DNA of 64,000 nucleotides, from the NCBI GenBank assembly GCA_963722605.1, contig CAVRNO010000004.1:410335-474334 (forward strand), in the 5' to 3' direction. The position numbers and the translations under genes were made by a program. The notes under the pieces were generated by a model. It was not told where the DNA came from. It saw only the letters and a program-made list of their open reading frames with translations, and did no database searches. Source of the stretch: Candidatus Binataceae bacterium. Lineage in GTDB: Bacteria > Desulfobacterota > Binatia > Binatales > Binataceae. Positions 5,750 to 61,414 of this stretch are shown here, one piece after another (the first letter of the stretch is position 1; the number at the start of each line of letters is the position of its first letter).

Positions 5750-5819
5750 GGCGCGCGCAAGATTGCACGGCGGATCGATTCGATGGCGGCACTCTGCTGG
5801 ATGTCCGGGGAAGACCACG

Positions 5820-26483: not shown

Positions 26484-26499
26484 TGGCATGCCCATTGCT
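26484..26499 (+). promoter_or_regulatory. sigma-54 (-24/-12) promoter of ACIII/Qrc-like operon
   Basis: TGGCATGcccaTTGCT, a near-perfect match to TGGCACG-N4-TTGCW, 45 nt upstream of ATG 26544. Confidence 0.6.
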
Positions 26500-33480: not shown

Positions 33481-33491
33481 TCCCTTTCTCC

Positions 33492-34311: not shown

Positions 34312-34353
34312 CTGCCAATCTCCTCGCGTATCGAGGTACTACAGACCTCTATC

Positions 34354-34368
34354 GCAAGCAGGGTGCCA
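34354..34368 (-). promoter_or_regulatory. sigma-54 (-24/-12) promoter driving cupin / small TM / NrfD-like operon
   Basis: Minus-strand TGGCACCctgcTTGC (plus strand GCAAgcagGGTGCCA), about 45 nt upstream of the cupin ATG. Confidence 0.6.
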
Positions 34369-34516
34369 GCGGATCGAGCAGGGAGCCTTGCAAATAAGGC
34401 TTGAGATTGCTGGAGATTTTAGAGCGGCGGTGCGAGCGGGTGGGCGGTACCCTTACAAAATGTAACCAAGGCCAGGAATTACAGAAATACTATTTCAAAA
34501 TGAAACAGTCCAAGTA

Positions 34517-35890: not shown

Positions 35891-37551
35891 GCCTTCAGCT
35901 CCGTCGAAAGTGGAAGCACGATTCTTACGGTAGTTCCACCCTGGCCGTCGGGACCGGCCGCCTCACGGGTGCAGCTTTCCATCTCAAGTCGGCCCATGTG
36001 CTCCTCGATTATGCCGTAACTGATCGAAAGTCCGAGCCCGGTGCCCTCGCGTTTAGTGGTGAAAAACGGCTCGAATACCCGCGAACGGTTCTCCTCCGAT
36101 ATTCCAACGCCAGTGTCCTTGACCTCGATCGTCAGCGAATTGCCGGTGAGCTGTGCACTGACCGACAGGCGGCCTCCGCTTTCCATCGCCTGGGCGGCGT
36201 TAACGAACAGGTTGGTGAAAACCTGCACCATTCGCTCGGAGTCCCAGAAAACTTCGGGAAGGCCGGCTTCGATTCGGCGCTCAACGCTGATGCCGCGGAG
36301 TTCGATTTCATGCTCGGCCAGCCGCAACGCCTGATCGATCACATCCTCAGGCCTGCATAGCGCCTTGCGCAGGTCGTGGCGGCGCGAAAAAGCGCGCAAG
36401 TCCTCGATGATGCGCCTGCAACGGCCGGCATCTTCGTCGATCCTCTTAAGCTCACCGTAAAGCGGGGAGTCATGCCCGACCTCTTCGATCAGCAGGTTAG
36501 CGTTCATCAGGATGCCGGTCAGCGGGTTGTTGAGTTCATGGCACACGCCGCTGGCGAGCAACCCGAGCGAGGCGAGCTTCTCCGACTGGCGAAGCGCCTC
36601 GTCCTTTCGCTTCAGTTCCTCGGTCCGCCGCATGACGCGCTCCTCGAGGGTGCGGCTGTACCGGTTCAGCTGATCGCGATAGCGCTGTACCTCCTCCACC
36701 ATCGCGTTGAACGACAGGGCCAGTTCACCGATCTCGCCCAATCCGACCATCACTCGGTATCCCCAGTCTCCCGCCCTGACGCGGCGAGTGCCCTGGAGCA
36801 GACTCTGGATGGGGCGCGAGACCCGGTCCGCCAGGAAGGCCGCGATGCACGAGCCCATCACCACCACCGCAACGCTTACCAGGATCATCAGCGTCAATGC
36901 GCGCTCGCTCAGCGCCTGCGACTGTTCGCGCAAGACCGCGACCCGTTTGACCAGGATGTCCGCCATCGTCTGGAGTCGGTGACTTATCCCGGAAACCAGC
37001 AGGTCGACATCGTCCGCCTCGCCCGGGCGGGATGACTGTACGCTCGGGCCCGCGGCGTCGAAGACCTTGAGGCCTTTGATCCGGAGCCGCTCGAACTTGG
37101 GGCTGAGTGAAGCCGCCATCTCTTTGGTCGTCAACAGCGAGTTCCCGTGACAGGAGGCCGAGGCGCATGACGTGAGTTGCTGCTGTGCCGAATGCACCGC
37201 GCCCTCGAACTCCTGCGGGCCGCCGTCGCGCCGGTGCAGCAGGAAAGCCCCCACCGTCGCGTCTGCCCTAAAGAGTGCCAGTTGTATATGGTCGGTGGCC
37301 TCGAGCGACAGGCTGATTTCGTCGAGTTGGCGGTTGACGGCGACCAGCGAGCGGATCGAATAGATCGTGAAAAGCCCCAACAGGATCGTCCCTGGTATGG
37401 TGGCGATTAGGTAGCCTAGTATGAAACGGCGGGTCAGATTCCCCCTGCGGGCCTTATTCTGAAGCTCGCTCTGCGGCTTGGAATTGTCGTCGTGGTTGGT
37501 ATTGATCGGGCCCGCGCTGGAGACGAGCGCCGCTGGCGCGTCGGGAATCAC
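35887..37551 (-). CDS. membrane sensor histidine kinase (2 TM, periplasmic domain with CX4CH motif, HAMP, HisKA, HATPase)
   Basis: TM1 …FILGYLIATIPGTILLGLFTIYSI…, periplasmic ~150 aa including QLTSCASASCHGNS (nt ~37147-37170), TM2 …LTLMILVSVAVVVMGSCIAAFL…, then …SGVCHELNNPLTGI… H-box and N/G boxes. Confidence 0.85.
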   Translation of the reverse strand: MIPDAPAALVSSAGPINTNHDDNSKPQSELQNKARRGNLTRRFILGYLIATIPGTILLGLFTIYSIRSLVAVNRQLDEISLSLEATDHIQLALFRADATVGAFLLHRRDGGPQEFEGAVHSAQQQLTSCASASCHGNSLLTTKEMAASLSPKFERLRIKGLKVFDAAGPSVQSSRPGEADDVDLLVSGISHRLQTMADILVKRVAVLREQSQALSERALTLMILVSVAVVVMGSCIAAFLADRVSRPIQSLLQGTRRVRAGDWGYRVMVGLGEIGELALSFNAMVEEVQRYRDQLNRYSRTLEERVMRRTEELKRKDEALRQSEKLASLGLLASGVCHELNNPLTGILMNANLLIEEVGHDSPLYGELKRIDEDAGRCRRIIEDLRAFSRRHDLRKALCRPEDVIDQALRLAEHEIELRGISVERRIEAGLPEVFWDSERMVQVFTNLFVNAAQAMESGGRLSVSAQLTGNSLTIEVKDTGVGISEENRSRVFEPFFTTKREGTGLGLSISYGIIEEHMGRLEMESCTREAAGPDGQGGTTVRIVLPLSTELKA

Positions 37552-45615: not shown

Positions 45616-46013
45616 TTTCCTCACCTCCTGTAAAAGTTCGCCGTCACCGTGGGAAGAGCAAGGCTGATGCCAAGGACCCGATCGTTCATTTCATTGGATT
45701 ATTTTCGACCGACACAGTGCCTATCATTTGCGATTCGCAAAACATTGGCCGCGAGTCGCGAATACTCCGCCATTTTCATAGACACCGTCGTTCAAGCCGG
45801 CTCATCGATGCTAAGCAGCCGAGCGACTGCATGCAGCGCGATCATGTCGTCAAGATGTCACCTAATTGTTACCAACGTGTTGCGGACGCTGTCGCATCTC
45901 GACACCCCCACGGCGTACGCGACGGCTGAGATCGAGCGACATGTAGCGATGGCTAATGGCCGCGCCGCCCTGGCGCCGCTTTCGTTTGACGGCGTCACCC
46001 GACTCGGTCTTTA

Positions 46014-47432
46014 ATGCCCGTCATGGCTGGAATAGTTTCTTACGGTTCATACGTTCCGTACCGACGCCTCAAGCGCTCCGCGATCGCCGCCGTCCTCGGC
46101 ACGCCTGCCGGCAAGGGCGAGCGCGCAATCGCGAGCTTCGACGAAGACAGCGTATCGATGGCGGTCGAAGCGGTTCGCGACGCGCTGAAAGCTGCGCCGC
46201 CCGGCAACGTGCAGGCGCTCATCTTCGCAACCACGACGCCGCCCTACGCGGAAAAACTCAGCGCCGCGGTGATCGGCGCAGCCGCTTTGCTGCCGGCGGA
46301 AATCCGCGCATCGGATATGACCGGCTCGGTCCGCGCCGGCTTGTCTGCCCTGCTGCAAGGCGCCGATGCGATCGGCGGCGGCGCCAAGCGCGCGCTGGTC
46401 GCCATCGGTGATTGCCGGCTGGCGGCGCCCGAGGGCAAGGCCGAGCAGACGACCGGCGACGGCGCGGTCGCTTTTGTCCTCGGTGCGGAGGGCGTGATCG
46501 CCGAAATCGAGGCGAGCGCCTCGCTCACGCGCGAGTTCCTGGACAGTTGGCGCGCGCAGGGCGAGCGTTTTTCGCATTCGTGGGAAGAGCGCTTCACGCT
46601 GACGCAGGCGCATTCTCCGCTGCTCGGCGCGGTGATCAAGAACGTGCTGGGGAAGGCGAAAGTCGCGCCGGGCGATCTGTCGAAGGTGATCCTCGACGCG
46701 CCCAACGTCCGCGCGGCCGACGAAATCGCGCGTGCGCTCAAGATCGATCCCGCCAAATTCTCCGATTCATTTGCCCTGACGGTCGGACAAACCGGCGCCG
46801 CGCACGCGGGCCTGATGCTCGCGGCCGCGCTGCCCTCCGCTAAGCCGGGCGACAGGATACTGGTCGCGACCGTGGCCGACGGCGCCGATGCGATTCTGTT
46901 CCGCGTCACGCCGGCCAACGCCGGCTTCAAGCCGGTGCATTCCGTCGGCCGGATGATCGAGTCCAAGGGCGACGTGTCTTACGCCAGCTATCTCAAGTGG
47001 CGCGAGATTCTGCCCACCGAGCCGCCGCGCCGCCCGGATCCCGATCGGCCCGCGGGACCCCCGATGATGCGCTCGGAGAAGTGGAAGTTCGGGTTTATCG
47101 GTTCGCGATGCACCAACTGCGGGACTCCGCAGCTTCCGCCGCAGCTGGTCTGCGTGAAATGCCATCAGCGCGGCAAGATGGAACCTTATGGATTCGCCGA
47201 CCGCACCGCGAAAATCGCCACCTACGCCATCGATCGCCTCGCCTATTCCCTCAATCCGCCGACGGTTAACGTCGTGCTCGACTTCGCCGGCGGCGGCCGC
47301 TTCCTGTGCGAGATGACCGACTGCGAACCCGACAAGGTCGCGATTGGCGACGAAGTCGAAATGACGTTTCGCCGGCTCTTTACCGCCGCCGGCGTCAACA
47401 ACTATTTCTGGAAAGCGCGCCCCAAGCGTTAA
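46014..47432 (+). CDS. thiolase-fold HMG-CoA-synthase-like domain fused to DUF35/OB-fold Zn-ribbon domain
   Basis: MPVMAGIVSYGSYVPYRRL… HMGCS-like N-terminus; C-terminal …CTNCGTPQLPPQLVCVKCHQRG… Zn ribbon plus OB fold. Confidence 0.7.
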   Translation: MPVMAGIVSYGSYVPYRRLKRSAIAAVLGTPAGKGERAIASFDEDSVSMAVEAVRDALKAAPPGNVQALIFATTTPPYAEKLSAAVIGAAALLPAEIRASDMTGSVRAGLSALLQGADAIGGGAKRALVAIGDCRLAAPEGKAEQTTGDGAVAFVLGAEGVIAEIEASASLTREFLDSWRAQGERFSHSWEERFTLTQAHSPLLGAVIKNVLGKAKVAPGDLSKVILDAPNVRAADEIARALKIDPAKFSDSFALTVGQTGAAHAGLMLAAALPSAKPGDRILVATVADGADAILFRVTPANAGFKPVHSVGRMIESKGDVSYASYLKWREILPTEPPRRPDPDRPAGPPMMRSEKWKFGFIGSRCTNCGTPQLPPQLVCVKCHQRGKMEPYGFADRTAKIATYAIDRLAYSLNPPTVNVVLDFAGGGRFLCEMTDCEPDKVAIGDEVEMTFRRLFTAAGVNNYFWKARPKR

Positions 47433-47449
47433 GCCCGAGGAGAAAATCA

Positions 47450-48635
47450 ATGGCAAGCAGAGGAATCAAGGACCGCGTCGCGATCATCGGGATGGGATGC
47501 ACCAAGTTCGGCGAGCATTGGGACAAGGGGACCGAAGACCTGCTGGTGGATGCCGCGTACCAGGCCTATGAATCGGCCGGCGTCGAGCCCAAAGACGTCG
47601 ACGCGTACTGGCTCGGCACCATGGGTTCGGGAATCTCGGGGCTTACGCTCTCCGAGCCGCTCAAGATTCAGTACAAGCCGGTCACTCGCGTCGAGAACAT
47701 GTGCGCGACGGGATCCGAGGCGCTGCGGCAGGCGTGCTACGCGGTCGCGTCGGGCGCGTTTGACGTCGCGATGGCGATCGGCGTCGAGAAACTCAAGGAC
47801 TCGGGCTACTCGGGATTGGTGATCAACAATCCGCCCAACGACGGCACCCAGGGCAGCATGACGGCGCCTGCGTCGTTCTCGCTGCTGGCGCCGGCGTATT
47901 TCAAGAAGTACGGACTCGACCCCGACAAGGGCAAGGACGTGCTGACGCGCATCGCGTGGAAGAATCACAAGAACGGCGCGAAAAATCCCAAGGCGCAGTT
48001 CCAGAAGGAAATATCGCTCGAGGCGATCAAGAACTCGCCCAAGATTGCCGACCCGCTCGGAATCATGGATTGCTCGGGCGTGTCCGACGGCTCCGCGGCC
48101 GCGATCGTCGTCCGCGCCGAGGACGCGCACAAGTACTGCAAGAATCCCATCTACATAAAGGCGCTCTCGTTCATCGCCGGGCCGGCGGAAGGACCGCTGT
48201 CGCCCGGACTACGATTTCACGACCTTCACCGAGGTCGTCGCCAGCGCCAAAGACGCGTACGCGCAGGCGGGCATCACCAATCCTCGCGAGCAGATCAGCA
48301 TGGCCGAGGTCCACGATTGCTTCACGCCCACCGAACTCGTGCTCTACGAGGATTTCGGCTTCAGCCCGCGCGGGACCGCATGGCAGGACGTGCTGGACGG
48401 GTTTTTCGACCTCGAGGGCAAGCTGCCGGTCAATCCGGACGGCGGTCTCAAGTCGTTCGGTCATCCGATCGGCGCGTCGGGCCTGCGCATGATGTACGAG
48501 ATGTGGCTGCAGTTGCGCGGCGAGGCGGGACCGCGTCAGATCAAGAATCCGAAAGTCGGACTGACGCACAATTTGGGCGGCGCGCCGGGCCGATGCGTCA
48601 GCTTCGTGTCGGTGGTCGGCAGCCAGGTCGGCTAG
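47450..48635 (+). pseudogene. SCP-x-type thiolase (acetyl-CoA C-acyltransferase), frameshifted near 48201-48206
   Basis: MASRGIKDRVAIIGMGCTKFGEHWDKG… active-site Cys region in frame 2. The C-terminal half …PDYDFTTFTEVVASAKDAYAQAGITNPREQISMAEVHDCFTPTELVLYEDFGF…HPIGASGLRMM… is in frame 0. Removing one C from tcgcccgga joins them. Confidence 0.75.
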
Positions 48636-48690
48636 TCGCGCTGTCATTCTGAGCGCAACGAAGAATCCCGATCCTTACTGAGCGGTTAGA

Positions 48691-48725
48691 ACGGCCGGCA
48701 TAAGCGAATGCCGGCCGTTTTCTTT
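48691..48725 (+). terminator. intrinsic terminator after thiolase gene
   Basis: ACGGCCGGCAT-aagcga-ATGCCGGCCGT then TTTTCTTT. Confidence 0.8.
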
Positions 48726-48736
48726 GCGCGACTAAG

Positions 48737-49030
48737 ATGCAGAACGCCGCTCCACTGGTCAAACGAATAGCTACGGTCGTAGCCGTGTTACTATGTATTT
48801 TTTATGCGGGCGAATTTATCTCAGTTAAGTATAGAATTCCCGCAAGCCGCGAGCCTTTCGCAACCGTGCAGATCAATAAGTATTACGCGGTGCCTCAGAA
48901 AAACGGCAAGACCGAGTTCGAGCCCGGTGAGCCTGAGACTCAGACCTGTGTCAACTCGATATTCCCGCACCTGGGTTACAGTCCGTGCTGGTACGTCCGA
49001 CGGCACAAGAACCAGCAAATAAATCTCTGA
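48737..49030 (+). CDS. hypothetical exported/membrane protein in low-GC segment
   Basis: MQNAAPLVKRIATVVAVLLCIFYAGEF… 97 aa, AT-richer than its surroundings; weak support. Confidence 0.3.
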   Translation: MQNAAPLVKRIATVVAVLLCIFYAGEFISVKYRIPASREPFATVQINKYYAVPQKNGKTEFEPGEPETQTCVNSIFPHLGYSPCWYVRRHKNQQINL

Positions 49031-49401
49031 CGGTCGCGCGCCGCCCTCGGTTTGATTGCCTGGATAGGAGGAGCAGCGACGACATAGTTCACCGCCAGAA
49101 TGAACCTCACCGCGGGCGTGTTTCGTTACGGCCGTTCTTCTCGTGCCGGACCGTTCGTGCCGTCAGGGCTATCCAGTGTGATCGAGCCACTTTTGAATCA
49201 TTTCTTGCGCTTCGGGCTTCTTCACGTCGCGAAAAAACTCGTCGCCGTCGAACGCAGGAAACGAGCCCATGAGACAACGCTGATCGGCGCATCGTTGAGG
49301 CTCGGAATTTCAATGAAATTTGCACTGGAAAGCACGATGCATTTTGAAATCTCATGGGATTGCAGAATGCAAAAAACCTTGTAGTATCGGGTTTTCCGGT
49401 T

Positions 49402-49417
49402 TGGCACGCGCGGTGCT
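49402..49417 (+). promoter_or_regulatory. sigma-54 (-24/-12) promoter upstream of kdpF-kdpABC
   Basis: TGGCACGcgcgGTGCT; -24 element perfect, -12 GC conserved with correct spacing. Confidence 0.5.
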
Positions 49418-49622
49418 GATAACCTTGTCGCTCAATTGCGATGCGAGGGAGAGGTCTCAATGAAACACACCGTAGCAGCGACGATGCGCCATGTGTTTGC
49501 GGTCAAAGCACTGGACGCATCGGACGGCCACGCTCCCTGGTTGCCCCAGGAACACTCTCGTCGTTCCGAACTCCCGGCTCACTAAGAGACCGCACTGAAC
49601 TTTACCAGGTGGGGAAGCCATT

Positions 49623-49706
49623 ATGTGGGACTTGATTTCGATTCTCGGCAGCATCGCATTTTTTGCGATTGCAATCGCCTACGTTTGGGGGTGCGACTAC
49701 TTATGA
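49623..49706 (+). CDS. 27-aa hydrophobic peptide upstream of and overlapping kdpF
   Basis: MWDLISILGSIAFFAIAIAYVWGCDYL; ATGA overlap with the kdpF start. Confidence 0.35.
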   Translation: MWDLISILGSIAFFAIAIAYVWGCDYL

Positions 49707-49795
49707 GTCCGGTTGAAACCGTGTTCGGCGGGATATGCGCTGTCTTGCTGGGTGCTTACTTGATTTACGCATTGATCCGTCCCGAAAAATTCTGA
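49703..49795 (+). CDS. kdpF: K+-transporting ATPase subunit F
   Basis: MSPVETVFGGICAVLLGAYLIYALIRPEKF, matching the KdpF motif L(L/G)xYLxYAL(I/L)xPE(K/R)F; below ORF-track cut-off. Confidence 0.7.
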   Translation: MSPVETVFGGICAVLLGAYLIYALIRPEKF

Positions 49796-49820
49796 ACCGC
49801 ACTAGCCGGTACATACCTAC

Positions 49821-51548
49821 ATGCTATCCAATTCGGTAGTTCAGCTCGTTGGTTACTTCCTGCTTGTCACGGCGATCAGCGTGCCGTTGGGCCTGTACAT
49901 GGCGCGCGTGTTCTCGAATGAGCGCACCTTTCTGGACCCGGTGCTCTTGCCGATCGAGAGATTGATTTACAGGATCTGCGGGATAAGCCCCGGCGTCGAG
50001 ATGGGCTGGGCGGGATATACGGTCTCGATGCTCGCGTTCAGCCTGGTCTCGATGGTTTTTCTGTACGCGCTGCAGCGGCTCCAGTACTACCTGCCGCTGA
50101 ATCCGCAGGGACTCGCCGGAGTGCCGCCGGGACTCGCCTTTAACACCGCGGCGAGCTTCACGACCAATACCAACTGGCAAGCATACTCGGGCGAGCAGAC
50201 GCTGAGTTATCTGACGCAGATGGTCGGGCTCACCTCGCACAACTTTCTCTCGGCGGCGGCCGGAATCGCGATGGCGGCGGCGGTGATTCGCGGATTCGCG
50301 CGCCGCAGCGCAAAGACGATCGGTAACTTCTGGGTCGATCTCACGCGCACGACGCTGTGGGTGCTGATTCCCATTTCTTTGATCTTTGCACTGGTTCTGG
50401 TTTGGCAGGGCGTGCCGGACAACTTCAGTCCGTACGTAAACGCGACGACGGTGGAGGGCGCTTCGCAAACGATCGCGCAAGGACCGGTGGCGTCCCAGGA
50501 AATAATCAAGGAGCTGGGCACCAACGGCGGCGGCTTCATGAACGCCAACTCGGCGCATCCCTACGAGAATCCGACGCCGCTGACCAACCTGATCGAGATG
50601 CTCGCGATCTTCTCGATCGGCGCGGGCCTGACCCACACCTTCGGCAAGATGGTCGGTGACCGGCGCCAGGGATGGGCGCTGTTCGCGGTGATGGCGATTC
50701 TGTTTTTGGGCGGCGCGACCACAGCCATCTGGGCCGAGCAGGGCGGCAATCCGCAATTCAGCGCGATTGGAATCGATCAGCATGCCTCCGCAACGCAAAG
50801 CGGCGGCAACATGGAGGGCAAGGAAGTCCGCTTCGGAATCGTCGATTCCGCGCTGTGGGCGACCGTAACCACCGACACCTCGTGCGGCGCGGTCAACTCG
50901 ATGCACGACAGCTACACGCCGCTTGGCGGGCTGGTGCCGATGGTTGACATGCAGCTCGGCGAGGTGATCTTCGGCGGCGTCGGCTCGGGTCTTTACGGAA
51001 TCATCGTGATGGCGGTGCTGGCGGTGTTCATCGCGGGCCTGATGGTAGGCCGGACGCCCGAGTACCTGGGCAAGAAAATCGAAGCGCGGGAAATGAAGCT
51101 CGCGATGCTCTACGTGCTCATCTTCCCCGCCGTCATTCTGATACCGACTGCGCTCGCGACCGTGTTGCCCGCCGGCCTGTCGGGCATTTCCAATCCGGGG
51201 CCTCACGGCTTCTCGCAAATCCTGTACGCGTACACGGAAGCGGGCGCGAACAACGGCTCCGCGTTCGCCGGGCTTAGCGCGAACACGCCCTTCTACAACG
51301 TGTCAATCGCGATCGTGATGCTGCTCGGCAGGTTCATGATGGCGATCCCGGCGCTTGCGATCGCGGGCTCGGTCGCGGCCAAGAAAACCACCGCCGTCAG
51401 CGCCGGCACTTTCCCGACCGACGGCGTCCCGTTCGTGTTCCTGTTGATTGGCGTAATCGTGATCGTCGGCGCGTTGACGTTCTTCTGCGCCGTCGCACTC
51501 GGACCGATCGTCGAGCAACTGCTGATGATGGCCGGGAAACTCTTCTAG
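49821..51548 (+). CDS. kdpA: K+-transporting ATPase subunit A
   Basis: 575 aa, …[15 protein letters not shown]…, …[18 protein letters not shown]… selectivity-filter regions. Confidence 0.95.
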
Positions 51549-51564
51549 GCATGGTGTCCCAAGC

Positions 51565-53607
51565 ATGAGTGATCGCAAGGCTCCCGCACTCTGGAATCGC
51601 GAAATCGTCTCGCGCGCGTCGATCGAATCGTTCGTCAAGCTCGACCCGCGCCTGATGATCAGGAATCCGGTGATGTTCGTGGTCGAAGTCACCAGCGTGA
51701 TGGTGATGTTCACCCTGTTTCGCGACTTGCTGGCTCATCGGATGGCGCTGGCCGGATTCGAATTTCAAATCGCGCTGTGGCTGTGGTTCACCGTGCTCTT
51801 CGCAAATTTCGCGGAGGCAATGGCGGAAGGCCGCGGCAAGGCGCAGGCCGACAACCTGCGCAAGACCCGCACCGAAACCCAGGCCAAATTGGTCATCGAA
51901 GGCGGCAAGACGAATCTCGTGCCGGCCGCACAACTCCGGCGCGGCGACATCGTAATGGTCGCGGCCGGCGACGTCATTCCCGGCGACGGCGAAGTTATCG
52001 AGGGCATCGCCGCGGTTAACGAGGCCGCCATCACCGGCGAATCGGCGCCGGTGATTCGTGAAAGCGGCGGCGATCGCAGCGGCGTCACCGGCGGAACCAC
52101 GGTGATTTCCGACTGGATCAAGGTGAAGATCACCGCCAACCCGGGCGAGACCTTCCTGGACCGCATGATCGCGCTGGTCGAAGGCGCGCAGCGTCAGAAA
52201 ACACCCAACGAGATCGCGCTCAGCATTCTGCTGTCCGGCCTCACCATCGTTTTCCTGCTCGTGGTCGTTACCCTCTACCCGTTCGGGCTGTATGGCGGCA
52301 CGCGGCTGGCGCTGCCGGTGCTGGTGGCGCTGCTGGTATGCCTGATTCCGACGACCATCGGCGGATTGCTCTCGGCGATCGGTATCGCGGGGATGGATCG
52401 CCTGGTGCAGCACAACGTGCTCGCGATGTCGGGCCGCTCGGTTGAAGCGGCCGGCGACGTCGATACCCTGCTGCTCGACAAGACCGGAACCATCACGCTG
52501 GGAAACCGGATGGCGGCGGAGTTCATCCCGGTGGATGGCGTGGACGAGGGCGAACTGGCCGAGGCCGCACAACTCGCGTCGCTGGCCGACGAGACTCCCG
52601 AAGGACGCTCGATCGTCGTGCTGGCCAAACGCAAATACAACCTGCGCGGGCGCGAACTCGGCGAGGACGGCGCCACCTTCATCCCGTTTTCCGCGCAGAC
52701 CAGGATGAGCGGCGTTGACTTCCACGGGCGTCGAATCCGCAAGGGCGCTGCCGAACAGATCGTACGTTTCGTCCAGGACAATCGCGGCACGCCGCCTGCC
52801 GACTTAAAAGCGATCGTCGAGCGCATCGCGCGCGGCGGCGGAACTCCGCTGGTGGTCGCCGACGAGGCCAAGGCGCTTGGCGTGATTCATCTGAAGGACA
52901 TGGTCAAGGAAGGAATCCGCGAGCGCTTCGAGCGGCTGCGCGCGATGGGTCTGCGCACGGTCATGATTACCGGCGACAACCCGCTGACCGCGGCCGCGAT
53001 AGCCAAAGAATCGGGGGTGGACGACTTCCTGGCCGAGGCCACTCCCGAAACCAAGCTGCGGCTGATTCGCGAGGAGCAGAACCAGGGCAAGCTGGTGGCC
53101 ATGATCGGCGACGGCACCAACGACGCACCCGCGCTCGCGCAGGCGGACGTCGGGATCGCGATGAACGCCGGCACCCAGGCTGCGCGCGAGGCCGGCAACA
53201 TGATCGACCTCGACTCGAATCCGACCAAGGTGATGGAAGTCGTCGAGATCGGCAAGCAACTGCTGATGACCCGCGGCGCCTTGACCACGTTCTCGATCGC
53301 CAACGACGTCGCCAAGTACTTCGCGATCATCCCGGCGCTGTTCATCGTGGAATATCCGGAGCTCCAGCGGCTCAACGTGATGCATCTGGCGACGCCGCAG
53401 AGCGCGATTCTGTCCGCGGTAATTTTCAACGCGCTGATCATAGTCGCGCTGATACCGCTGGCGCTGCGCGGCGTGCGCTACCGTCCGGTGGGCGCGGCCG
53501 CGATTCTGACCCGCAATCTTTTTATCTACGGCGTCGGTGGCGTGATTATTCCGTTCATCTTTATCAAGGCGATTGACATTATCGTGGCGGCGCTCCATCT
53601 CGCCTGA
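51565..53607 (+). CDS. kdpB: K+-transporting P-type ATPase subunit B
   Basis: 680 aa, DKTGTIT phosphorylation motif, …[21 protein letters not shown]… hinge. Confidence 0.95.
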
Positions 53608-53617
53608 GGAAAATTCC

Positions 53618-54220
53618 GTGCGAACATTCATATCGGCACTGGTTGTAACTGCCCTGCTCACCGTGATTACCGGCATCGTCTATCCGCTGGCAGTATGGGG
53701 CATCGCGCAGGCGATTTTCCCGGCCCAGGCGGGTGGCAGCCTGGTCGTCGCGGGCAACAAGGTCGCCGGCTCGAGCCTGATCGGGCAGAATTTTTCCTCG
53801 CCCCGCTATTTTCAGAGCCGGCCTTCCGCCGCCGGTGACAAGGGCTACGACGCCGCCAACTCCAGCGGCTCGAATCTCGGGCCGACCAACAAGGCGCTGA
53901 TCGACGCGGTCAAGCTGCGGCTGAAGAACTTCATCGAGAGCAATCCGGCCGCCGATCCGCGCCAGGTTCCGGTGGACCTGGTGACCGCTTCAGGCAGCGG
54001 CCTCGATCCCGAGATAAGTCCGGCCGCCGCCGGCCTGCAGGTGGCACGTGTTGCCCACGCGCGCGGCATAAGCGAAGATCAGGTGCGGCAGTTGATAGCC
54101 GAGAACACGCGGCCGCGATTTGCGGGAATCTTCGGCGAGCCCGGGGTAAACGTGCTGCTGTTGAACCTCGCCCTGGATCGCGCCGCGGGAAGTCATGGCG
54201 GAACAACTCCCGGGACTTGA
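53618..54220 (+). CDS. kdpC: K+-transporting ATPase subunit C
   Basis: GTG start after GAGGA RBS (VRTFISALVVTALLTVITGIVYPLAVWGIAQAIFPAQAGGSLV…); the ORF track extends to 53573. Confidence 0.85.
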   Translation: MRTFISALVVTALLTVITGIVYPLAVWGIAQAIFPAQAGGSLVVAGNKVAGSSLIGQNFSSPRYFQSRPSAAGDKGYDAANSSGSNLGPTNKALIDAVKLRLKNFIESNPAADPRQVPVDLVTASGSGLDPEISPAAAGLQVARVAHARGISEDQVRQLIAENTRPRFAGIFGEPGVNVLLLNLALDRAAGSHGGTTPGT

Positions 54221-55381
54221 ATGAGCGATGATAAACGACTTGAGCCCGAAGCTTATCTCGGTCTGGTGCCCCAAACTCAACGGGGACAGCTCAAAGTCTA
54301 TATCGGTGCGGCCGCCGGCGTAGGCAAAACCTACCGGATGCTCGAGGAGGCGCATCAACTCCGCGCTCGGGGAGTGGATGTGGTGCTTGGCCTGGTTGAA
54401 ACCCATAACCGCCGCGAGACCGAGGAACGGATCGGCAACCTCGAGGCCGTTCCGCGCCGCAAGATTTCGTACCGCGAAGTCACCCTCGAAGAGATGGACG
54501 TCGATGCGATCATCGCGCGCAAGCCCGAGTTCGTAATCGTTGACGAGCTTGCCCACACCAACGCCCCCGGCTCGCACCACGAAAAGCGCTACCAGGACGT
54601 CGAGCAGATCCTGGCCACCGGCATCAACGTGATTACCGCCATGAACATCCAGCACGTCGAAAGCCTCAACGCGCTGCTGCGCCGCATCACCGGCATCGAC
54701 GTGCGCGAGACGGTGCCCGATTCGATCCTGGCGCGGGCCGATCAGATCGTAAACATCGATGTGCCCGTGGAAGCGCTGCGCGAACGGCTGCGCGAGGGGA
54801 AGATTTACCCGCAAGCGCAGATCGAGCACGCGCTCAAGAATTTTTTCAAGCCGAGCAACCTTTCTTCGCTTCGTGAACTGGCGCTGCAAGAGGTCGCGCG
54901 CAGTCTGGACCGCCAGCGCCTCGACCGCGAGGCGCTCAAGCGCGAGGGCGGCCGCCACGCAAACGTGATCGAGCGCATCATGGTCGGAATCTCGTCCAAC
55001 GCCGCCGACACCGGACAGCTGCTGCGCAAGGCCTCGCGCATCGCCGGGCAGCTCAACGCGGAATGGTTCGCCGTGCACATCGAGACCCCGGCCGAGTCGG
55101 TGAAAAATATCGGCACCAGTGATTTCGTCGCGCTGCTCAACAACATCAATGTCGCCAGCGACCTCGGCGCGGAAACCGTGTGGCTCAAGTCCGACGACGT
55201 GGTCAAGGCGTTGATCGACTTCGCCCACGACAAGGGCGTGACCAAGCTGATCATCGGCCGGACCCATCAGCCGCGATGGCGCCGGTGGCTGAAGGGCGAC
55301 GTGCCGGCGCGGCTGGTTGAGGACGCACGCGACCTGGACGTGGAAATAGTCGCGACCGAGGAACGGGAGGAATCGCAATGA
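54221..55381 (+). CDS. kdpD: KdpD N-terminal sensor domain protein (KdpD plus Usp domains, no kinase core)
   Basis: …LKVYIGAAAGVGKTYRMLEEAHQL… Walker-like KdpD domain, then a USP-like domain …RIMVGISSNAADTGQLLRKASRIAG…; 386 aa, no TM/HisKA. Confidence 0.85.
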   Translation: MSDDKRLEPEAYLGLVPQTQRGQLKVYIGAAAGVGKTYRMLEEAHQLRARGVDVVLGLVETHNRRETEERIGNLEAVPRRKISYREVTLEEMDVDAIIARKPEFVIVDELAHTNAPGSHHEKRYQDVEQILATGINVITAMNIQHVESLNALLRRITGIDVRETVPDSILARADQIVNIDVPVEALRERLREGKIYPQAQIEHALKNFFKPSNLSSLRELALQEVARSLDRQRLDREALKREGGRHANVIERIMVGISSNAADTGQLLRKASRIAGQLNAEWFAVHIETPAESVKNIGTSDFVALLNNINVASDLGAETVWLKSDDVVKALIDFAHDKGVTKLIIGRTHQPRWRRWLKGDVPARLVEDARDLDVEIVATEEREESQ

Positions 55382-57165
55382 CCGCGGCATCGCTGCAACG
55401 CCAGATTCGCAACGGCACTTTGCTGATGCTGGCGTTGGTCGTTGTGCTGGGAATCTACACGCTGCCGCGGGTTTACTCGCTTGGCGGCGCAATCCGCGAG
55501 ACCCTTTATCGCAACTACGTCAGCATCGAGGCCGCACAGAACATGCACGCCGCGCTCACGACGCTTCAGGTCGCCGAGCACGACGGCCGCGCCAGGGACG
55601 TTCTGCCCGGGGCGCGGCAAAATTTCCTGCAGTGGATCGACGTCGAGAATCACGACTTTACTGAAGTTGGCGAGCCTGATCTTGCCGCCGATATCGCCCG
55701 GCGCGGCAACCAACTGTTCGCCGCCGTCGCCGCCGCGCCGCCCGGCGCGCTGCACGATCGCGAATTCGCCGAATTGAACGGCCGCCTCGACGATCTGATC
55801 GCGATGAACAAGGCCGCGATGTTCCGCGCGGACAGCCGCTCGGTAAAGCTGGGGCGGCGGCTGGCGTACGAATTCGCCGGCGGGCTTGCGCTGGTGCTGC
55901 TGGTGGGCGCCGCGGTGTCGTGGGGTCTGGGATGGCGGCTCTCAAAGCCGCTGACGGAACTCGCCGAGCGCCTGCGCGGAATCAGTCAGCGCAAGTCGCA
56001 GGTGCGGCTTGGCCCGCAGCCGCTGGCCGAGCTGGAAGCGGTCGCGCGCGAATTCAACCAGATGGCCGAGCGGCTCGAGCACTACGACCAGCTCAACGTC
56101 GAGCGCCTCGTTTACGAAAAGAGCAAGACCGAAGCCATCATCGAGAGCCTCGAAGACGGCGTCGTGCTGATCGACACCGGAGGAATCGTTGCGCACATAA
56201 ATGAGATCGCGTCGCTGATCCTTGGCGTCGATCTTCAGGACGCGCTCGGCAGCCCGTTCGACGACCTCAGCAGCAACCATCCTCATTACCTGCGCGTTCG
56301 CGATGCGTTGCGCGCACTTCAGCGGGCCGGGCCGGAAGGCCAGCGCACTGAAATCGATCTTCACGTCCGCGGCCGCGCCCATTCCTACGTGCTCAAGTCT
56401 GTCCCGCTTCATCACACGGCCGGCGCCTCGCTCGGCACGCTGCTGATTTTGCAGGACGTGACCTACCTCCGCGATCAGGATCGCGCCCGCACCAACCTGG
56501 TCGCCACCCTGTCGCACGAGCTCAGGACCCCGCTCACCTCGCTTGCGCTGTCGGCGGAGCTGCTGGGCCGCGATATGCCGGCTTCAAATCCGAAGAGCAC
56601 CGAACTGTTGCAGGTGATCATCGAAGAATGCACGCGGATGCGTCAGCTTACCGACAACCTGCTCAACCTCGCGCGCGGCGAGATCCCGGCCATCGCGGTT
56701 CAGCAAAAGCGTCTCGATCTTGCCCGTCTGGCGGCCGATGTGACCAGGCGCTTCGCAATCCAGGCCCGCGAGAAGCACGTCGAGATCCAGGAGCAGATCG
56801 GACCGGTGCCCGAGGTGATCGGCGACCCGGTCAAGCTCTCCTGGGTGATATCGAACCTGCTCGGCAACGCGCTCCGCTACACGCCCGCCGGCGGAACCAT
56901 CAAAGTCGCGACCCGCGGCGCCAAGCAGGCGACGCGGCTGGAAGTCACCGACTCGGGGCCCGGAATTCCGCCCGAGCTGAAAGACTATATTTTCGAGCGT
57001 TTCGTGCAGTACGGTTCCGACGGGCTCGAAAAGGGATCCGCCGGGCTGGGATTGTCGATCGTCAAGGAAATTGTCGAGGCCCACGGCGGCAGGATTTTCG
57101 TCGAGAGCGCCAACTCTCACGGCTCCCGATTCATCGTCGAAATTCCCGCCGCGAAGGAGCTTTGA
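55378..57165 (+). CDS. membrane sensor histidine kinase (TM-HAMP-PAS-HisKA-HATPase)
   Basis: …LVATLSHELRTPLTSL… H-box, …ISNLLGNALRYTPAGG… N-box, …DSGPGIPPE…GSAGLGLSIV… G-boxes; ATGA-coupled to kdpD-N. Confidence 0.85.
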   Translation: MTAASLQRQIRNGTLLMLALVVVLGIYTLPRVYSLGGAIRETLYRNYVSIEAAQNMHAALTTLQVAEHDGRARDVLPGARQNFLQWIDVENHDFTEVGEPDLAADIARRGNQLFAAVAAAPPGALHDREFAELNGRLDDLIAMNKAAMFRADSRSVKLGRRLAYEFAGGLALVLLVGAAVSWGLGWRLSKPLTELAERLRGISQRKSQVRLGPQPLAELEAVAREFNQMAERLEHYDQLNVERLVYEKSKTEAIIESLEDGVVLIDTGGIVAHINEIASLILGVDLQDALGSPFDDLSSNHPHYLRVRDALRALQRAGPEGQRTEIDLHVRGRAHSYVLKSVPLHHTAGASLGTLLILQDVTYLRDQDRARTNLVATLSHELRTPLTSLALSAELLGRDMPASNPKSTELLQVIIEECTRMRQLTDNLLNLARGEIPAIAVQQKRLDLARLAADVTRRFAIQAREKHVEIQEQIGPVPEVIGDPVKLSWVISNLLGNALRYTPAGGTIKVATRGAKQATRLEVTDSGPGIPPELKDYIFERFVQYGSDGLEKGSAGLGLSIVKEIVEAHGGRIFVESANSHGSRFIVEIPAAKEL

Positions 57166-58497
57166 TGGCCAGGCTGCTCATTGTCGATGACGAGCGCAAT
57201 ATCCGCCGAAGCCTCGTCGCGTTTTTCGAGTCGCTTGGCCACGAGGTCCGCGCCGCCGAGAACGGCACGCAGGCCGTCGCGATGCTCGCCGAGACCCAGT
57301 TCGATCTGGTGCTGACCGACTACCGGATGGCCGAGATGACCGGGCTCGAACTGCTGCGCGAGATCAAGCGGCGCGCCCCCGACTGCCTGGTAATTCTGAT
57401 GACCGCTTATGCGACCGTTGAAAATGCGGTCGAGGCGATGAAGTCCGGCGCCTACGACTATGTCACCAAGCCGTTCTCGCTCGAACAGATCCAGCACACC
57501 GTCGATCGGGCGCTGCACGTCAGGGTGCTTCAGGCGGAAAATCGCGCACTGCGCAGCGCGATCGACGAGGAGCCGCTGCTCGACTCGCGCAGCCCCGCGA
57601 TGCAACGCCTGCTCGAAACTGCGCGCCAGGCCGCCGCCAGCGACGCGACTATTCTGCTCACCGGCGAGAGCGGCACCGGGAAGAACGTCATCGCCCGCCA
57701 GATTCACCGATGGAGCCGGCGCCAGAGCAAGCCGTTCGTGGTGGTCAATTGCACCACGCTCTCGGAAGAACTGCTGGAGAGCGAGTTGTTCGGGCACATG
57801 CGCGGCGCGTTCACCGGCGCGGTCAAGGACAAGCCCGGGCGGCTCGAGGCGGCCAACGGCGGGACGGTTTTCCTCGACGAGATTGCCGACTTGACGCCCA
57901 CCCTGCAGACCAAGTTTCTGCGCTTTCTCCAGGATCAGAACTTCGAGCGGGTCGGTGGCGAACGCACGATTCACGTCGATGCGCGAATAATCGCCGCGTC
58001 CAATCGCGACCTCGACTCCGAAGTCGCCGCGCATCACTTTCGCGAGGATCTCTACTACCGCCTCAACGTCATCACCCTGCGCGTGCCTCCGTTGCGCGAA
58101 CGCCGCGAGGATATTATCCCGCTCGCACAATGGCTGCTGAACGTCGCCGCAGTGCGCAATTCGCATCCCGGCCTGGCATTTTCACCCGGAGCGATCGCGG
58201 CGTTGACCGCACTATCGATGGCCCGGAAATGTGCGCGAACTTCGCAACGCGATCGAACGCGGCACCGTCCTGATGCACGGCGAGACGATCGCGCCCGAGG
58301 ACCTGCCCGATTCGCTGTTTCACGAATCCACCGACGCCCTCACCGGCATCCCCAACGCCGCCAGCCTCGACGAGGTCGAACGCGAGCATATCGCGCGCGT
58401 GCTCGCCGCCAGCGCCACGCTTGAAGAAGCCGCCGACACGCTCGGCATCAACGTCACGACGCTCTGGCGAAAGCGCCGGCGCTACGGAATCGAATAG
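57165..58497 (+). pseudogene. sigma-54-dependent response regulator (NtrC family), frameshifted at ~58207-58213
   Basis: REC plus AAA+ (GESGTGKN…GAFTGA) in frame 0 up to …AIAALTA. The expected …HYRWPGNVRELRNAIERG…HTH is in frame +1 (ORF 58231..58497). A 1-2 nt indel at accgcactatcg joins them. Confidence 0.8.
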
Positions 58498-58560
58498 CCG
58501 CAGGCGGCCGCGCTTGCCGGAGCTTGAATCGCTTGTTATCCGGTGACTCGGCGGATTCGC

Positions 58561-59376
58561 TTAAGCTCGCTTGCGCGCGCCGAAGGTCAGCACCGAGCCG
58601 TCGAGTTGCGGGCGGAAATCCTCGAAACCTGCCTGAGTCAGGTATCCATCGAGCTGCGCCGGTTCGAACAGCCGCACCCCAACCCGCTCGATACGCTCGC
58701 GGATGCGCTGGTAGCGCAGGATACCCGTGCGCACAGCGGCAAAGGTCGTTACCGCCAGGATTCCGCCCGCTTTCATCACCCGCGCAATCTCGCTGAGCGC
58801 GGCGACCGTGTCTGGAAACAGATGGAGTGCGCCGCCGCACAGAGCGACGTTGAAGAACGCGTCGGGGAAAGGCAAGGCGTCCGAACTCGCGCGCGCGAAT
58901 TCGACGTTGCCGATGCCCGCCTGAGTTACGTAGGCCGCGCCTTGCCGTAACATGCTCCACGAAATGTCGACCCCGTAAACGCTCCTGGTCGGCGACGCGA
59001 TCCGGCGTCCCAGCGTCCCCGGCCCGCAGGCGACGTCCACCACCGGTCCGCTTTGCGCCGCCACTATCGCCCCGACCTTGTCCATCAGCTGCCCGAAGGA
59101 CGGGGCTTTGTTTCCACCGACCATTCTCAGGATCACCGGATACCAGAGCTTGGTCTCGTACAATCGCGAGATCAGTGGCACATTCATCGCGCGCAATGCC
59201 CGGTTCATTCTGGGGCCGATTCTGGAAGCGAAATCTTGCCCGGTGAAATCCGGGATACCTTCGACGATCGGATAGCTGGCCTGACAGGCGCGGCAATCGA
59301 ACGCCACGGCGCCGCGCGTCAGCGGACCTTTACAGGAAGGGCAAACGTAGACGTTGAGTGGCTCGGCCATACTCAC
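58561..59376 (-). CDS. class I SAM-dependent methyltransferase with N-terminal Zn-ribbon
   Basis: CPSCKGP…CRAC ribbon, then …VVDVACGPGTLG… motif I. Confidence 0.75.
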   Translation of the reverse strand: MSMAEPLNVYVCPSCKGPLTRGAVAFDCRACQASYPIVEGIPDFTGQDFASRIGPRMNRALRAMNVPLISRLYETKLWYPVILRMVGGNKAPSFGQLMDKVGAIVAAQSGPVVDVACGPGTLGRRIASPTRSVYGVDISWSMLRQGAAYVTQAGIGNVEFARASSDALPFPDAFFNVALCGGALHLFPDTVAALSEIARVMKAGGILAVTTFAAVRTGILRYQRIRERIERVGVRLFEPAQLDGYLTQAGFEDFRPQLDGSVLTFGARKRA

Positions 59377-59419
59377 TCCTCGCAGCCTGCCGTCTACTCT
59401 CCTTGCCGCCGCGCCGCAA

Positions 59420-61414
59420 CTACGAATTCTCCGGCTCTTCCGTTGCTCTCAAACTTAGCGGACGCAGCCGCGACGACTTCTTGGACTGATGGTCCTGCAT
59501 GCGGCGCAGGATGTCGTCGAGCGCGCTGACCGCCGCGACAATGTGAGGCCCCTTGTTCAGCATCACGCACTCGGCGCGTTCTCCCATCGCGGCGTCGGTG
59601 ATTTCTGCGCGCGACGCCTGGCCTTTCTTGGCCAGCGTCTCGAGCACCTGCGTCGCCCATATCACCGGCAGATGCGCCGCCTCGCAGATCCACAGAATTT
59701 CCTCCTGAACCTCCGCCAGCCGTTCGTAGCCGCACTCCACCGCCAGGTCTCCGCGTGCGATCATGATACCCACCGGTTGCTGCCGCATCGCGGCGAGCAT
59801 CAGGTTGGGCAAACGCTCGAAGCCCTGGCGCGTCTCGATTTTCAGCACGATTCCCAAATGATCGCCGCCAAGCTCCCGCAGTCGCGATTGAAGTTGAACG
59901 ATGTCGCGCTCATGGCGCACGAACGACATCCCGACCAGGTCCGCGTGCCGAACGATAAACTTAAGATCTTCGAGGTCTTTCGGCGTGAGCGCGGGCAGGT
60001 TGATGTGGGTATCGGGCAGATTGATTCCTTTGTCGGCCCCCAGCCGGGTCCCGCCCGCTTTGGCCTCGGTTATCTCGATCCGAAGCGCGCCGGGCTCGGC
60101 CTCCTTCACGATTCCGCCGATCTTGCCGTCGTCGAACCAAATCTTCTCGCCCACGCGAACCATCGGGAAAACCTCCGGCAGCGTGCACGAGACCGTCGCC
60201 GGACTGAGCGTCCGTCCATCCGAATCGACCGAAGCGTTTTTGCCCACGATCGGCTCGCCCGTGAGCAGAATGAAGTCCCCTTTGCGCAGCATGATTCCTT
60301 GCGCGCGGCGCGGTAATTCTCCCACCTGCGCTTCGCGCCTTGCTTCGCGGTCCACATCGACGCGGATCAGGACCGTTCCCGCGGTCACGTAGGCGGTTTG
60401 GCTGCATTGAGCCCATCGCCCTGCCTCGCCGATACCGACCACTTCGAGCACCCGCCGTTTCCCGCGCGCATCTTTGAAGTGGATGCGTTCTCCGGGTTTG
60501 ACCTCATCCAGCCATTGCGCTGAGGCGACGGGGATCGCCGCGTCCGCACCCGGGGGAGGATGGCGGGCCGGCTCGGCGCCCGCGAGCCAGATTCGCGCCG
60601 GTTCCGTCACCCGTCCAAAACTATCGCGCCTGGGATGCCACGCGACCACTTGAGGCCCCGGTTCGATTTCCCCGGTTCGGAGCTTCGGCCCGGCAATGTC
60701 CATCTCGATACGGCATGGCAGACCCAGTTCCCGCCGCGCGCGCTCCAGATGATCGGCCATCCGGCCCCAGATTTCCGGGGTATCGTGCGCGCAGTTTATC
60801 CGCATGCAGTTCATTCCATGGGAAACCAGGTCGCGCACCAGCGCGTAGTCATCCGCAGCCTCGGCTGACATCGTAACCATGATGCGGACGCCGCGATGCT
60901 CCGGCGCGGGACCCAGTAGCGCCTCGGTATTCGCCGCGAGGATCGACCTGCCTTCGCGAAAGCCCGGACATTCCGACGGCGCCGGCGCTTCAATCTTCCG
61001 ACCTGCCAGGCGATGGAGCGCCAGCAGCACCGCATTCAGCGTGCTCATCACGTGGGCTTCCGTCCGGCCGAGCGATGAGAGGCCGAGCACCGCGAGTTCG
61101 TCCTGCAGTATCCGAATATCTTCGCGTCTGAGCGCGAGATAATGGATCAAATTGATCGCGCTTTTCCGATACGCGGGATGGACCGTCGAGGCGCGCTGGT
61201 GAAGTTCGCTTTCGTGCCTTAGCAGCGACCGGCGGATTTCACCAAGCCTCGCGATTAGAGCTTCAAACGAATCGGGGCTTGCTAACGGCGATTCGATTTT
61301 ATTGTTCACGGCGGCACAATAATTGGTGCAATCGACGTGCCGATTCGATTCTACCTCTCGTCTCTCTCCCGTAACAAAGAGAGCATCTGCGCGGCTTCGC
61401 GGAAGCCTCGGCAA
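59420..61414 (-). CDS. pyruvate-kinase-family protein with long N-terminal extension
   Basis: …IMIARGDLAVECGYERL…ICEAAHLPVIWATQVLETL… PK barrel signature; 664 aa; start uncertain. Confidence 0.55.
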   Translation of the reverse strand: MPRLPRSRADALFVTGERREVESNRHVDCTNYCAAVNNKIESPLASPDSFEALIARLGEIRRSLLRHESELHQRASTVHPAYRKSAINLIHYLALRREDIRILQDELAVLGLSSLGRTEAHVMSTLNAVLLALHRLAGRKIEAPAPSECPGFREGRSILAANTEALLGPAPEHRGVRIMVTMSAEAADDYALVRDLVSHGMNCMRINCAHDTPEIWGRMADHLERARRELGLPCRIEMDIAGPKLRTGEIEPGPQVVAWHPRRDSFGRVTEPARIWLAGAEPARHPPPGADAAIPVASAQWLDEVKPGERIHFKDARGKRRVLEVVGIGEAGRWAQCSQTAYVTAGTVLIRVDVDREARREAQVGELPRRAQGIMLRKGDFILLTGEPIVGKNASVDSDGRTLSPATVSCTLPEVFPMVRVGEKIWFDDGKIGGIVKEAEPGALRIEITEAKAGGTRLGADKGINLPDTHINLPALTPKDLEDLKFIVRHADLVGMSFVRHERDIVQLQSRLRELGGDHLGIVLKIETRQGFERLPNLMLAAMRQQPVGIMIARGDLAVECGYERLAEVQEEILWICEAAHLPVIWATQVLETLAKKGQASRAEITDAAMGERAECVMLNKGPHIVAAVSALDDILRRMQDHQSKKSSRLRPLSLRATEEPENS

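Follow-up and report, generated by a model that had tools for sequence, protein, structure and literature searches.

A Binatus-like Kdp operon with its own stand-alone KdpD-N/Usp protein, KinB-like kinase and NtrC-type regulator, predicted to be under sigma-54-dependent control

We analysed a stretch of 64,000 nucleotides (hereafter the window) from the genome assembly of a Candidatus Binataceae bacterium (GCA_963722605.1, contig CAVRNO010000004.1, positions 410,335 to 474,334 of the forward strand), and within it the operon for the high-affinity K+ uptake system Kdp. The closest homologues are named Candidatus Binatus or Binataceae, of the phylum Candidatus Binatota. Taken as a whole, this Binatus-like Kdp operon is very probably one sigma-54-dependent transcription unit. 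Its order is two TGCA-type boxes, a -24/-12 promoter, a leader open reading frame (ORF) called ORF-X, a 27-amino-acid (aa) peptide, kdpFABC, a gene for a KdpD N-terminal domain with a Usp domain (KdpD-N/Usp), a KinB-like kinase and an NtrC/AlgB-like regulator. According to the ORF map and Pfam scans the cluster is co-directional throughout, from the promoter at 49402-49417 to the end of the regulator gene at 58497. The feature is real, and it represents a new phylum for a type of Kdp control already described in Desulfovibrio vulgaris. Its parts, all on the plus strand and numbered by their position in the window, are the following:

49314-49324 (+): putative upstream activator box 1, TGAAATTTGCA (Binatia consensus TGCAATTTGCA), centred at about -109 from the predicted start
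49336-49350 (+): putative upstream activator box 2, GATGCATTTTGAAAT, centred at about -84 from the predicted start
49360-49372 (+): third palindrome, TTGCAGAATGCAA (TTNCA-N3-TGNAA), of which only the right half, GATGCAAAA, is kept in close relatives
49402-49417 (+): predicted sigma-54 (-24/-12) promoter, TGGCACGCGCGGTGCT, one mismatch from TGGCAC-N5-TTGCW
49460-49585 (+): remnant of leader ORF-X (41 aa), with the same N-terminus as the ~114-aa version in relatives
49623-49706 (+): small ORF for a hydrophobic 27-aa peptide (MWDLISILGSIAFFAIAIAYVWGCDYL), overlapping the kdpF start (ATGA)
49703-49795 (+): kdpF, 30 aa (PF09604, 2.2e-11; TIGR02115, 2e-9)
49821-51548 (+): kdpA (PF03814, 8.8e-250)
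51565-53607 (+): kdpB, the P-type ATPase subunit (TGES at residues 157-160, DKTGT at 305)
53618-54220 (+): kdpC (PF02669, 2.4e-75)
54221-55381 (+): stand-alone KdpD N-terminal domain and Usp protein, 386 aa (Pfam; PDB 2R8R; Walker A GAAAGVGKT, Walker B VDELAH)
55378-57165 (+): KinB-like membrane histidine kinase, 595 aa, with a transmembrane segment (TM), periplasmic four-helix bundle, second TM, HAMP, PAS, HisKA and HATPase_c
57165-58497 (+): sigma-54 enhancer-binding response regulator, with a receiver domain (REC) carrying D52, AAA+ with GAFTGA, lid and HTH_8; 443 aa after removal of one C
58207-58208 (+): additional C (CC against a single C in relatives) that throws the regulator out of frame, located by alignment with L001, L003 and L004-L006 (our handles for homologous loci)

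The ORF map and Pfam recovered the entire gene set, kdpABC with three genes downstream, that an earlier note made from the sequence alone had listed. The GTG start of kdpC at 53618 is inferred from the gene call of L004 and a GAGGA ribosome-binding site. The same note described ATGA/TGATG coupling throughout, which applies only to the start/stop overlaps of KdpD-N with the kinase (ATGA) and of the kinase with the regulator (TGATG); kdpC and kdpD-N abut (TGAATG), and gaps of 16 and 10 nt separate kdpA from kdpB and kdpB from kdpC. Its identification of a 595-aa membrane HAMP-PAS histidine kinase was right, since Pfam found HAMP, PAS, HisKA and HATPase_c, and so was its placing of an NtrC-type regulator where an OmpR-type KdpE would stand: AAA+ and HTH_8 were found and Trans_reg_C was not. 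Indeed, the ORF map and Pfam revealed no gene in the locus that combines REC with a winged-helix Trans_reg_C domain. The regulator matches PF00072, PF00158, PF25601 (AAA_lid_14) and PF02954 (HTH_8) and carries D52, GESGTGKN and GAFTGA; it has the REC with its Asp, the AAA+ domain with Walker A/B and GAFTGA, and the C-terminal Fis-type HTH that define the NtrC family.

The evidence for a shared sigma-54 promoter comes from conservation. The promoter that had been predicted upstream of kdpF lies at 49402-49417, and in ~25 loci its counterpart (TGGCACG-N4-GTGC) stands 225-930 nt upstream of kdpA, a distance that varies because of the leader ORFs. When ten diverged upstream regions were aligned, the invariant columns formed three blocks only, namely the two boxes and the TGGCA/TGC of the promoter. 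In box 1 these columns are T23, G24, G31, C32 and A33, i.e. TG..(N5)..GCA, and in box 2 they are C-ATGCA...T at 49335-49345. The spacing between box 2 and TGGCAC is 65-69 nt in 20 of the 25 non-redundant Binatia loci. Two boxes followed by a promoter would be the anatomy expected of an NtrC-type enhancer with tandem sites, here at about -109 and -84. The third palindrome is weakly conserved, and its role is therefore uncertain. No sigma-70-like promoter was detected in 48600-59500.

The gene order is conserved as well. kdpFABC, KdpD-N, the kinase and the sigma-54 regulator follow one another in L001/L002, L003 and L004-L006, where the flanking genes are unrelated and the regulators are intact (443-448 aa). 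A scan of a genome collection with the KdpD-N alignment, of which we considered the best 80 of 586 matches, returned the same order in every Binatia locus (~30 species). Neither the locus in the window nor any of these ~30 orthologous loci contains a full-length KdpD or an OmpR-type KdpE, so that the conventional kdpDE pair, which the earlier note had named as the finding that would speak against it, did not appear in the orthologous loci. Its proposal that the kdp structural genes, KdpD-N/Usp, PAS kinase and NtrC-type regulator belong together thus agrees with one conserved unit behind a conserved sigma-54 promoter.

The arrangement itself is not new: a 2011 study mapped the same operon, with its sigma-54 regulator, in D. 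vulgaris (PMC3333781). There, the operon DVU3339.1-DVU3334 consists of kdpFABC, the KdpD-N/Usp protein DVU3336, the sensory-box kinase DVU3335 and the regulator DVU3334, and DVU3334 targets its own operon in DAP-chip, which measures in-vitro binding on a genome array (Rajeev 2011, PMC3333781). The authors described the operon as containing a split kinase and pointed out that D. vulgaris Miyazaki and Syntrophobacter fumaroxidans have orthologues (PMC3333781). DVU3334 is also listed as a GAFTGA response regulator for potassium uptake, with CGTTACATTTTGTAACGG, GATTACAAAATGAAATAT and CGTTTCATTTTGAAATGT as predicted sites of its orthologues (Kazakov 2015, PMC4641369). The two operons, compared by published description and not by sequence, are alike in gene content and order, in the GAFTGA regulator and in the sigma-54-dependent promoter before kdpF. 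The AT-rich dyad upstream in D. vulgaris, TTACATTTTGTAA, has a related counterpart here in ATGCATTTTGAAA, and box 2 differs from the 17-nt S. fumaroxidans site by three mismatches and agrees with it at 12/13 positions over the CATTTTGAAATGT part. They differ in phylum (Desulfobacterota versus Binatota), in the further regulators DVU0596 and DVU3305 that also target the promoter in D. vulgaris, and in the extra leader ORFs of the Binatia loci. Moreover, the D. vulgaris operon is autoregulated, whereas autoregulation here is predicted: the putative sites and promoter are supported by their conservation, and binding has been demonstrated for D. vulgaris DVU3334 only. Literature searches on enhancer-binding or RpoN control of kdpA and on potassium in Binatia returned nothing relevant.

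Some observations weigh against a dedicated sigma-54 unit. Matches to the promoter consensus number 5 in the window against 1.75 expected, so by count a single match is not above chance; the significance of the one at 49402-49417 lies in its conservation at the same place in ~25 related loci, not in the match count. The TTNCA-N3-TGNAA motif is non-specific, and the best matches to the DVU3334 motif in the window, TTACAAAATGTAA and TTTCAAAATGAAA, sit at another sigma-54 operon, upstream of a promoter at 34353-34368 on the minus strand. As these better dyad matches stand beside a paralogous regulator, the dyad class is generic for the regulator family and no proof of orthology, and we dropped the motif match as specific evidence for it. 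Finally, a conventional kdpDE pair is possible elsewhere in Binatia genomes, given that the scan covered the best 80 of 586 matches.

Outside the Binatia, a short KdpD-N followed by a kinase of the same architecture was also found in Bacteroidota, Ignavibacteria and two genome bins labelled 'delta proteobacterium', in one of which (L046) the kinase also matches 4HB_MCP_1. A sigma-54 REC-AAA+-HTH_8 regulator adjoins five such loci, in Bacteroidota (L061, L065, L070) and in the 'delta' bins (L046, L051); the sequence fetched around the Ignavibacteria locus L049 and around several further Bacteroidota loci contained none. In front of kdp in two of the Bacteroidota loci, paired TTTCATTTTGAAA-type dyads lie upstream of a GG-N10-GC element. 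Other combinations came out of the same scan: in Vicinamibacterales a short KdpD-N is accompanied by a separate kinase and a short receiver-domain regulator, and Geobacter, Planctomycetota and Gemmatimonadales have a full-length KdpD with a short receiver-domain regulator.

Pfam confirmed that the 386-aa protein has, as claimed, the KdpD N-terminal (PF02702, 8.2e-95) and Usp (PF00582, 1.9e-5, above the Pfam cutoff) domains only, and found no transmembrane, GAF, HisKA or HATPase part in it. A full-length KdpD comprises KdpD, Usp, a four-TM DUF4118, GAF, HisKA and HATPase; this protein ends at 386 aa, and NF007793, a model of 895 positions, aligns with it over positions 4-379. The solved KdpD N-domain (PDB 2R8R) is matched at 1.5e-67, and against NF038185, 'KdpD-like non-kinase potassium sensor', the protein scores 389 bits, under the cutoff of 550. 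In published work, the N-terminal domain of KdpD proved to be an atypical serine kinase of the Walker A/B type that phosphorylates KdpB at Ser162 and inhibits the pump, and the isolated domain is sufficient for this phosphorylation (Silberberg 2024, PMC11018627). KdpD/Usp proteins of short form are known, mostly from species that lack KdpE, and that of Deinococcus geothermalis phosphorylates KdpB and is stimulated by c-di-AMP (PMC11018627). Here the serine-kinase residues are kept, namely GAAAGVGKT-Y (Walker A), VDELAH (Walker B) and RERLREGKIY (the aromatic/Arg pair for adenine); they are invariant in our KdpD-N alignment (A2), with Y standing where E. coli has W, and KdpB of the window has the target serine motif TGES at residues 157-160. 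By analogy with these characterized proteins, KdpD-N/Usp makes more sense as an independent, atypical serine kinase of KdpB, and it may additionally be a partner of the histidine kinase.

Compared with KdpD/KdpE of E. coli, which likewise control kdpFABC, the KdpD N-terminal and Usp parts are homologous and Walker A/B and the KdpB TGES are kept, whereas the membrane, GAF and kinase half is missing from the KdpD protein and no OmpR-type KdpE is present; the kdp promoter, served in E. coli by sigma-70 plus KdpE, is predicted here to be of the sigma-54 type. Deinococcus (D. radiodurans DR_B0088, D. geothermalis) and cyanobacteria also encode a stand-alone KdpD-N+Usp protein at the end of kdpABC. 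In Deinococcus, however, the partner kinase is a true KdpD C-terminal half and the regulator resembles KdpE in its action at a kdp promoter (PMC5716572), whereas here they are KinB-like and of the sigma-54 type.

The locus had been described as a split KdpD, and this is correct as regards the stand-alone KdpD-N/Usp and incorrect as regards the PAS kinase, which is not a detached KdpD C-terminal half: Pfam found neither DUF4118 nor GAF in its 595 aa, and it resembles KinB in combining a periplasmic four-helix bundle with HAMP and PAS. The sensor domain, modelled alone with AlphaFold2, was predicted as a four-helix bundle with a predicted local distance difference test of 90.8. In a fold search its best meaningful match was the KinB sensor domain (4LLC_A, TM-score 0.74, root-mean-square deviation 2.7 A, with a non-significant E-value of 0.038), with NarQ also close; the full-length model (predicted TM-score 0.36) retrieved only generic kinase cores.

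It is quite possible, though we rather doubt it, that KdpD-N/Usp is mainly a cytoplasmic K+- or nucleotide-sensing partner of the KinB-like kinase, in a three-component system equivalent to a split KdpD, and not an independent KdpB kinase. The two genes overlap by ATGA and are adjacent or overlapping in Binatia, Bacteroidota and Ignavibacteria, and in D. vulgaris the authors saw one kinase split into two ORFs (PMC3333781). Nonetheless, the kinase lacks every KdpD-specific C-terminal element, isolated KdpD-N is enough to phosphorylate KdpB on serine in vitro, and some short forms have no kinase next to them (PMC11018627; the Vicinamibacterales and Thermoanaerobaculia loci). The partner role and the KdpB-kinase role are not mutually exclusive.

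The regulator gene is not one uninterrupted frame in the window. The C-terminal half of AAA_lid_14 and HTH_8 lie in another frame, at 58210-58497; after '...SPGAIAALT' the original frame turns into Arg-rich junk, and the coding sequence resumes in the next frame with 'HYRWPGNVRELRN...HTH_8', as far as 58497. An indel of 1-2 nt separating AAA+ from HTH had been suspected, and it proved to be exactly one extra C at 58207/58208, where the window reads TTGACCGCAC and L004, L005, L006, L001 and L003 read TTGA-CGCAC. Joining 57165-58208 to 58210-58497 yields a protein of 443 aa, which aligns over 100% of its length, at 95% identity, with a homologue that also has 443 aa; almost all the listed regulator homologues measure 442-448 aa. 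L004-L006 are three independent metagenome assemblies reached through a KdpD-N protein 98% identical to that of the window; they share 97% DNA identity with the window over 9.3 kb and have an intact 443-aa regulator. Between the window and L004, the extra C is the only uncompensated coding indel in those 9.3 kb.

The frame break is most likely no biological feature of the system, as it is absent from the near-identical strains and from every other species, and a second frameshift affects an unrelated gene. The latter, a thiolase-like gene (47447-48635, plus strand) 10 kb upstream, is split at a junction near 48185, with Thiolase_N in the frame of 47306-48652 and Thiolase_C_1 (6.6e-38) in that of 48159-48632; once spliced, it aligns over residues 10-384 of 394 with the thiolase 6ESQ. 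It suggests indel errors in this assembly, and the related long-read genome bins L023 and L043 have many such frame breaks. Because three 97%-identical assemblies lack the extra C and the thiolase gene is also broken, we consider the break in the regulator to be probably an assembly or consensus error. The thiolase break came from a frame scan based on GC at third codon positions (GC3), which also flagged one false case at ~28.1 kb, where the true gene runs on the opposite strand, and overlooked the shift in the regulator itself, so that it does not count frameshifts exhaustively.

A real frameshift, leaving this strain with a recently inactivated regulator and a kdp operon that is uninducible or uses another activator, is unlikely. 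The sequence as given does encode REC-AAA+ followed by 72 junk residues, without the sensor-II/lid end and without HTH; strain-specific mutations do exist, as the region differs by 3% and in gene content from the nearest relatives; and an intact paralogous sigma-54 regulator with a similar HTH is encoded in the same window. Against these points, the change is a single-base extension of a C, missing from the three near-identical assemblies and all other species, an unrelated conserved gene 10 kb away is frameshifted too, and no other decay (stops, deletions) is visible in the 9.3-kb operon.

Alternatively, the kinase and regulator might form an unrelated KinB/AlgB-type system that is tied to kdp by its downstream position alone and controls other genes, a reading we regard as very improbable. 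Names based on KEGG Orthology at the Joint Genome Institute do call the homologues KinB and AlgB, and the sensor fold is closest to KinB. KinB/AlgB of Pseudomonas aeruginosa also pairs a kinase of periplasmic four-helix bundle, HAMP, PAS, HisKA and HATPase with an NtrC-family REC-AAA+-HTH regulator; its targets are alginate and virulence genes, as opposed to kdp here. KinB is not known to have a KdpD-N partner. Neither kinase nor regulator reached the cutoff of an NCBIfam equivalog, the best 25 matches including PnpS, AtoC, ZraR and NtrC below their cutoffs and no KinB or AlgB model. However, the genes overlap with no promoter or terminator between them, their linkage to kdp is kept in ~30 species with changing flanks and in several phyla, a conserved sigma-54 promoter with putative activator boxes precedes kdpF, and DVU3334 binds its own kdp promoter (PMC3333781). 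Least credible of all is that a programmed +1 ribosomal frameshift sets the amount of full-length activator, an idea of practically negligible probability that we rejected because the shift is conserved in none of ~35 related loci and its context (TTG ACC GCA C) is neither slippery nor a stop codon.

With the regulator taken as intact, the operon could work as follows. The membrane kinase would detect a signal related to K+ or to the envelope, by way of its periplasmic four-helix bundle, its cytoplasmic PAS domain or both, and, judging from the family, would phosphorylate the regulator at D52. The regulator would then oligomerise on the boxes at about -109 and -84 and, by means of ATP and the GAFTGA loop, bring the complex at the sigma-54 promoter into the open state. 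The regulatory genes lie inside the kdp unit, and induction should therefore feed back positively, as noted also for D. vulgaris. At replete K+, the soluble KdpD-N/Usp, which keeps the Walker A/B serine-kinase residues, would most likely shut the pump post-translationally through the TGES serine of KdpB, as in E. coli and D. geothermalis. The translational coupling of its gene to that of the kinase suggests that it may also modulate the histidine kinase, again by comparison with E. coli and D. geothermalis.

The leader region and the structural genes vary among relatives. In several Binatus species (e.g. L015, at 2000-2344, and L025) ORF-X encodes ~114 aa with a YHCARCKW (CxxC) motif; L004-L006, like the window, carry only the 41-aa remnant. 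Neither ORF-X nor the 27-aa small ORF matched a Pfam or NCBIfam family, and a literature search for a small ORF ahead of kdpF gave no relevant result. A hydrophobic small ORF of 26-31 aa stands directly 5' of kdpF, often overlapping it, in most of the fetched kdp loci that are readable there, including those of Binatia, Anaeromyxobacter, Thermoanaerobaculia, Bacteroidota, Gemmatimonadales and Planctomycetota, and independently of the regulator type. It may be an unannotated extra small Kdp subunit or an operon leader peptide. In L010 (Ca. Binatus soli UBA7539, 1275-8158) and L027 the Binatia-type promoter, boxes and KdpD-N/kinase are kept, in L010 also the regulator, and kdpABC is divergent, with KdpA only 36-37% identical to that of the window; L010 retains a 100-aa remnant of a native-type kdpC, 92% identical. 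From these comparisons it looks like the structural kdp genes were replaced under the same control region. The bin MFD10064.bin.1.75 holds two complete clusters of kdp, KdpD-N, kinase and sigma-54 regulator (L034 and L036), one regulator being fragmented. With respect to the 97%-identical relatives around L004, gene content differs at 58527-59420 and 49045-49254: after the regulator the window carries an additional gene for a SAM-dependent methyltransferase whose N-terminus is Trm112p-like (58561-59376, minus strand), and it lacks the DUF347 gene that stands upstream of the promoter in L004-L006.

Elsewhere in the window lies the other sigma-54 operon mentioned above, whose regulator is 46% identical to the kdp regulator:

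34353-37551 (-): second sigma-54 module, with a HAMP kinase (35887-37551) and an intact REC-AAA+-HTH_8 regulator (34517-35890)

Two perfect dyads, GTTTCATTTTGAAATAG and GGTTACATTTTGTAAGG, come after the kinase-regulator pair of this module, and the promoter TGGCACCCTGCTTGCG comes next, at 34368-34353; beyond it, a 127-aa ORF without a family precedes an NrfD-like gene (32125-33495). The sigma-54 consensus is matched with one mismatch at three more places, 26484-26499 (+), 45657-45672 (-) and 61327-61342 (-); the overall count in the window is not above chance.

These results extend an experimentally mapped and almost unstudied type of Kdp control from Desulfovibrio to an uncultured soil phylum, and show that the module recurs in several phyla. 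The trio of KdpD-N/Usp, kinase and regulator was seen in Binatota, Bacteroidota, Ignavibacteria (the regulator not found in the L049 stretch) and the 'delta' bins, and in Desulfobacterota in the literature. Tentatively, and with more doubt than conviction, we propose that KdpD-N/Usp, a KinB-like kinase and a sigma-54 activator form an ancient, widespread alternative module for Kdp control, in which KdpD-N links KdpB inhibition to kinase control. If so, many species with a short KdpD and no KdpE that are thought to regulate Kdp post-translationally only would have enhancer-dependent transcriptional control too. For annotation, the regulator should not be labelled a pseudogene before the reads are checked, as its frameshift is probably a consensus error. 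Candidate DNA sites (49314-49350) and protein partners are now specified. The findings also qualify the recent view that a short KdpD without KdpE means post-translational regulation of Kdp only, since such species may keep dedicated transcriptional control.

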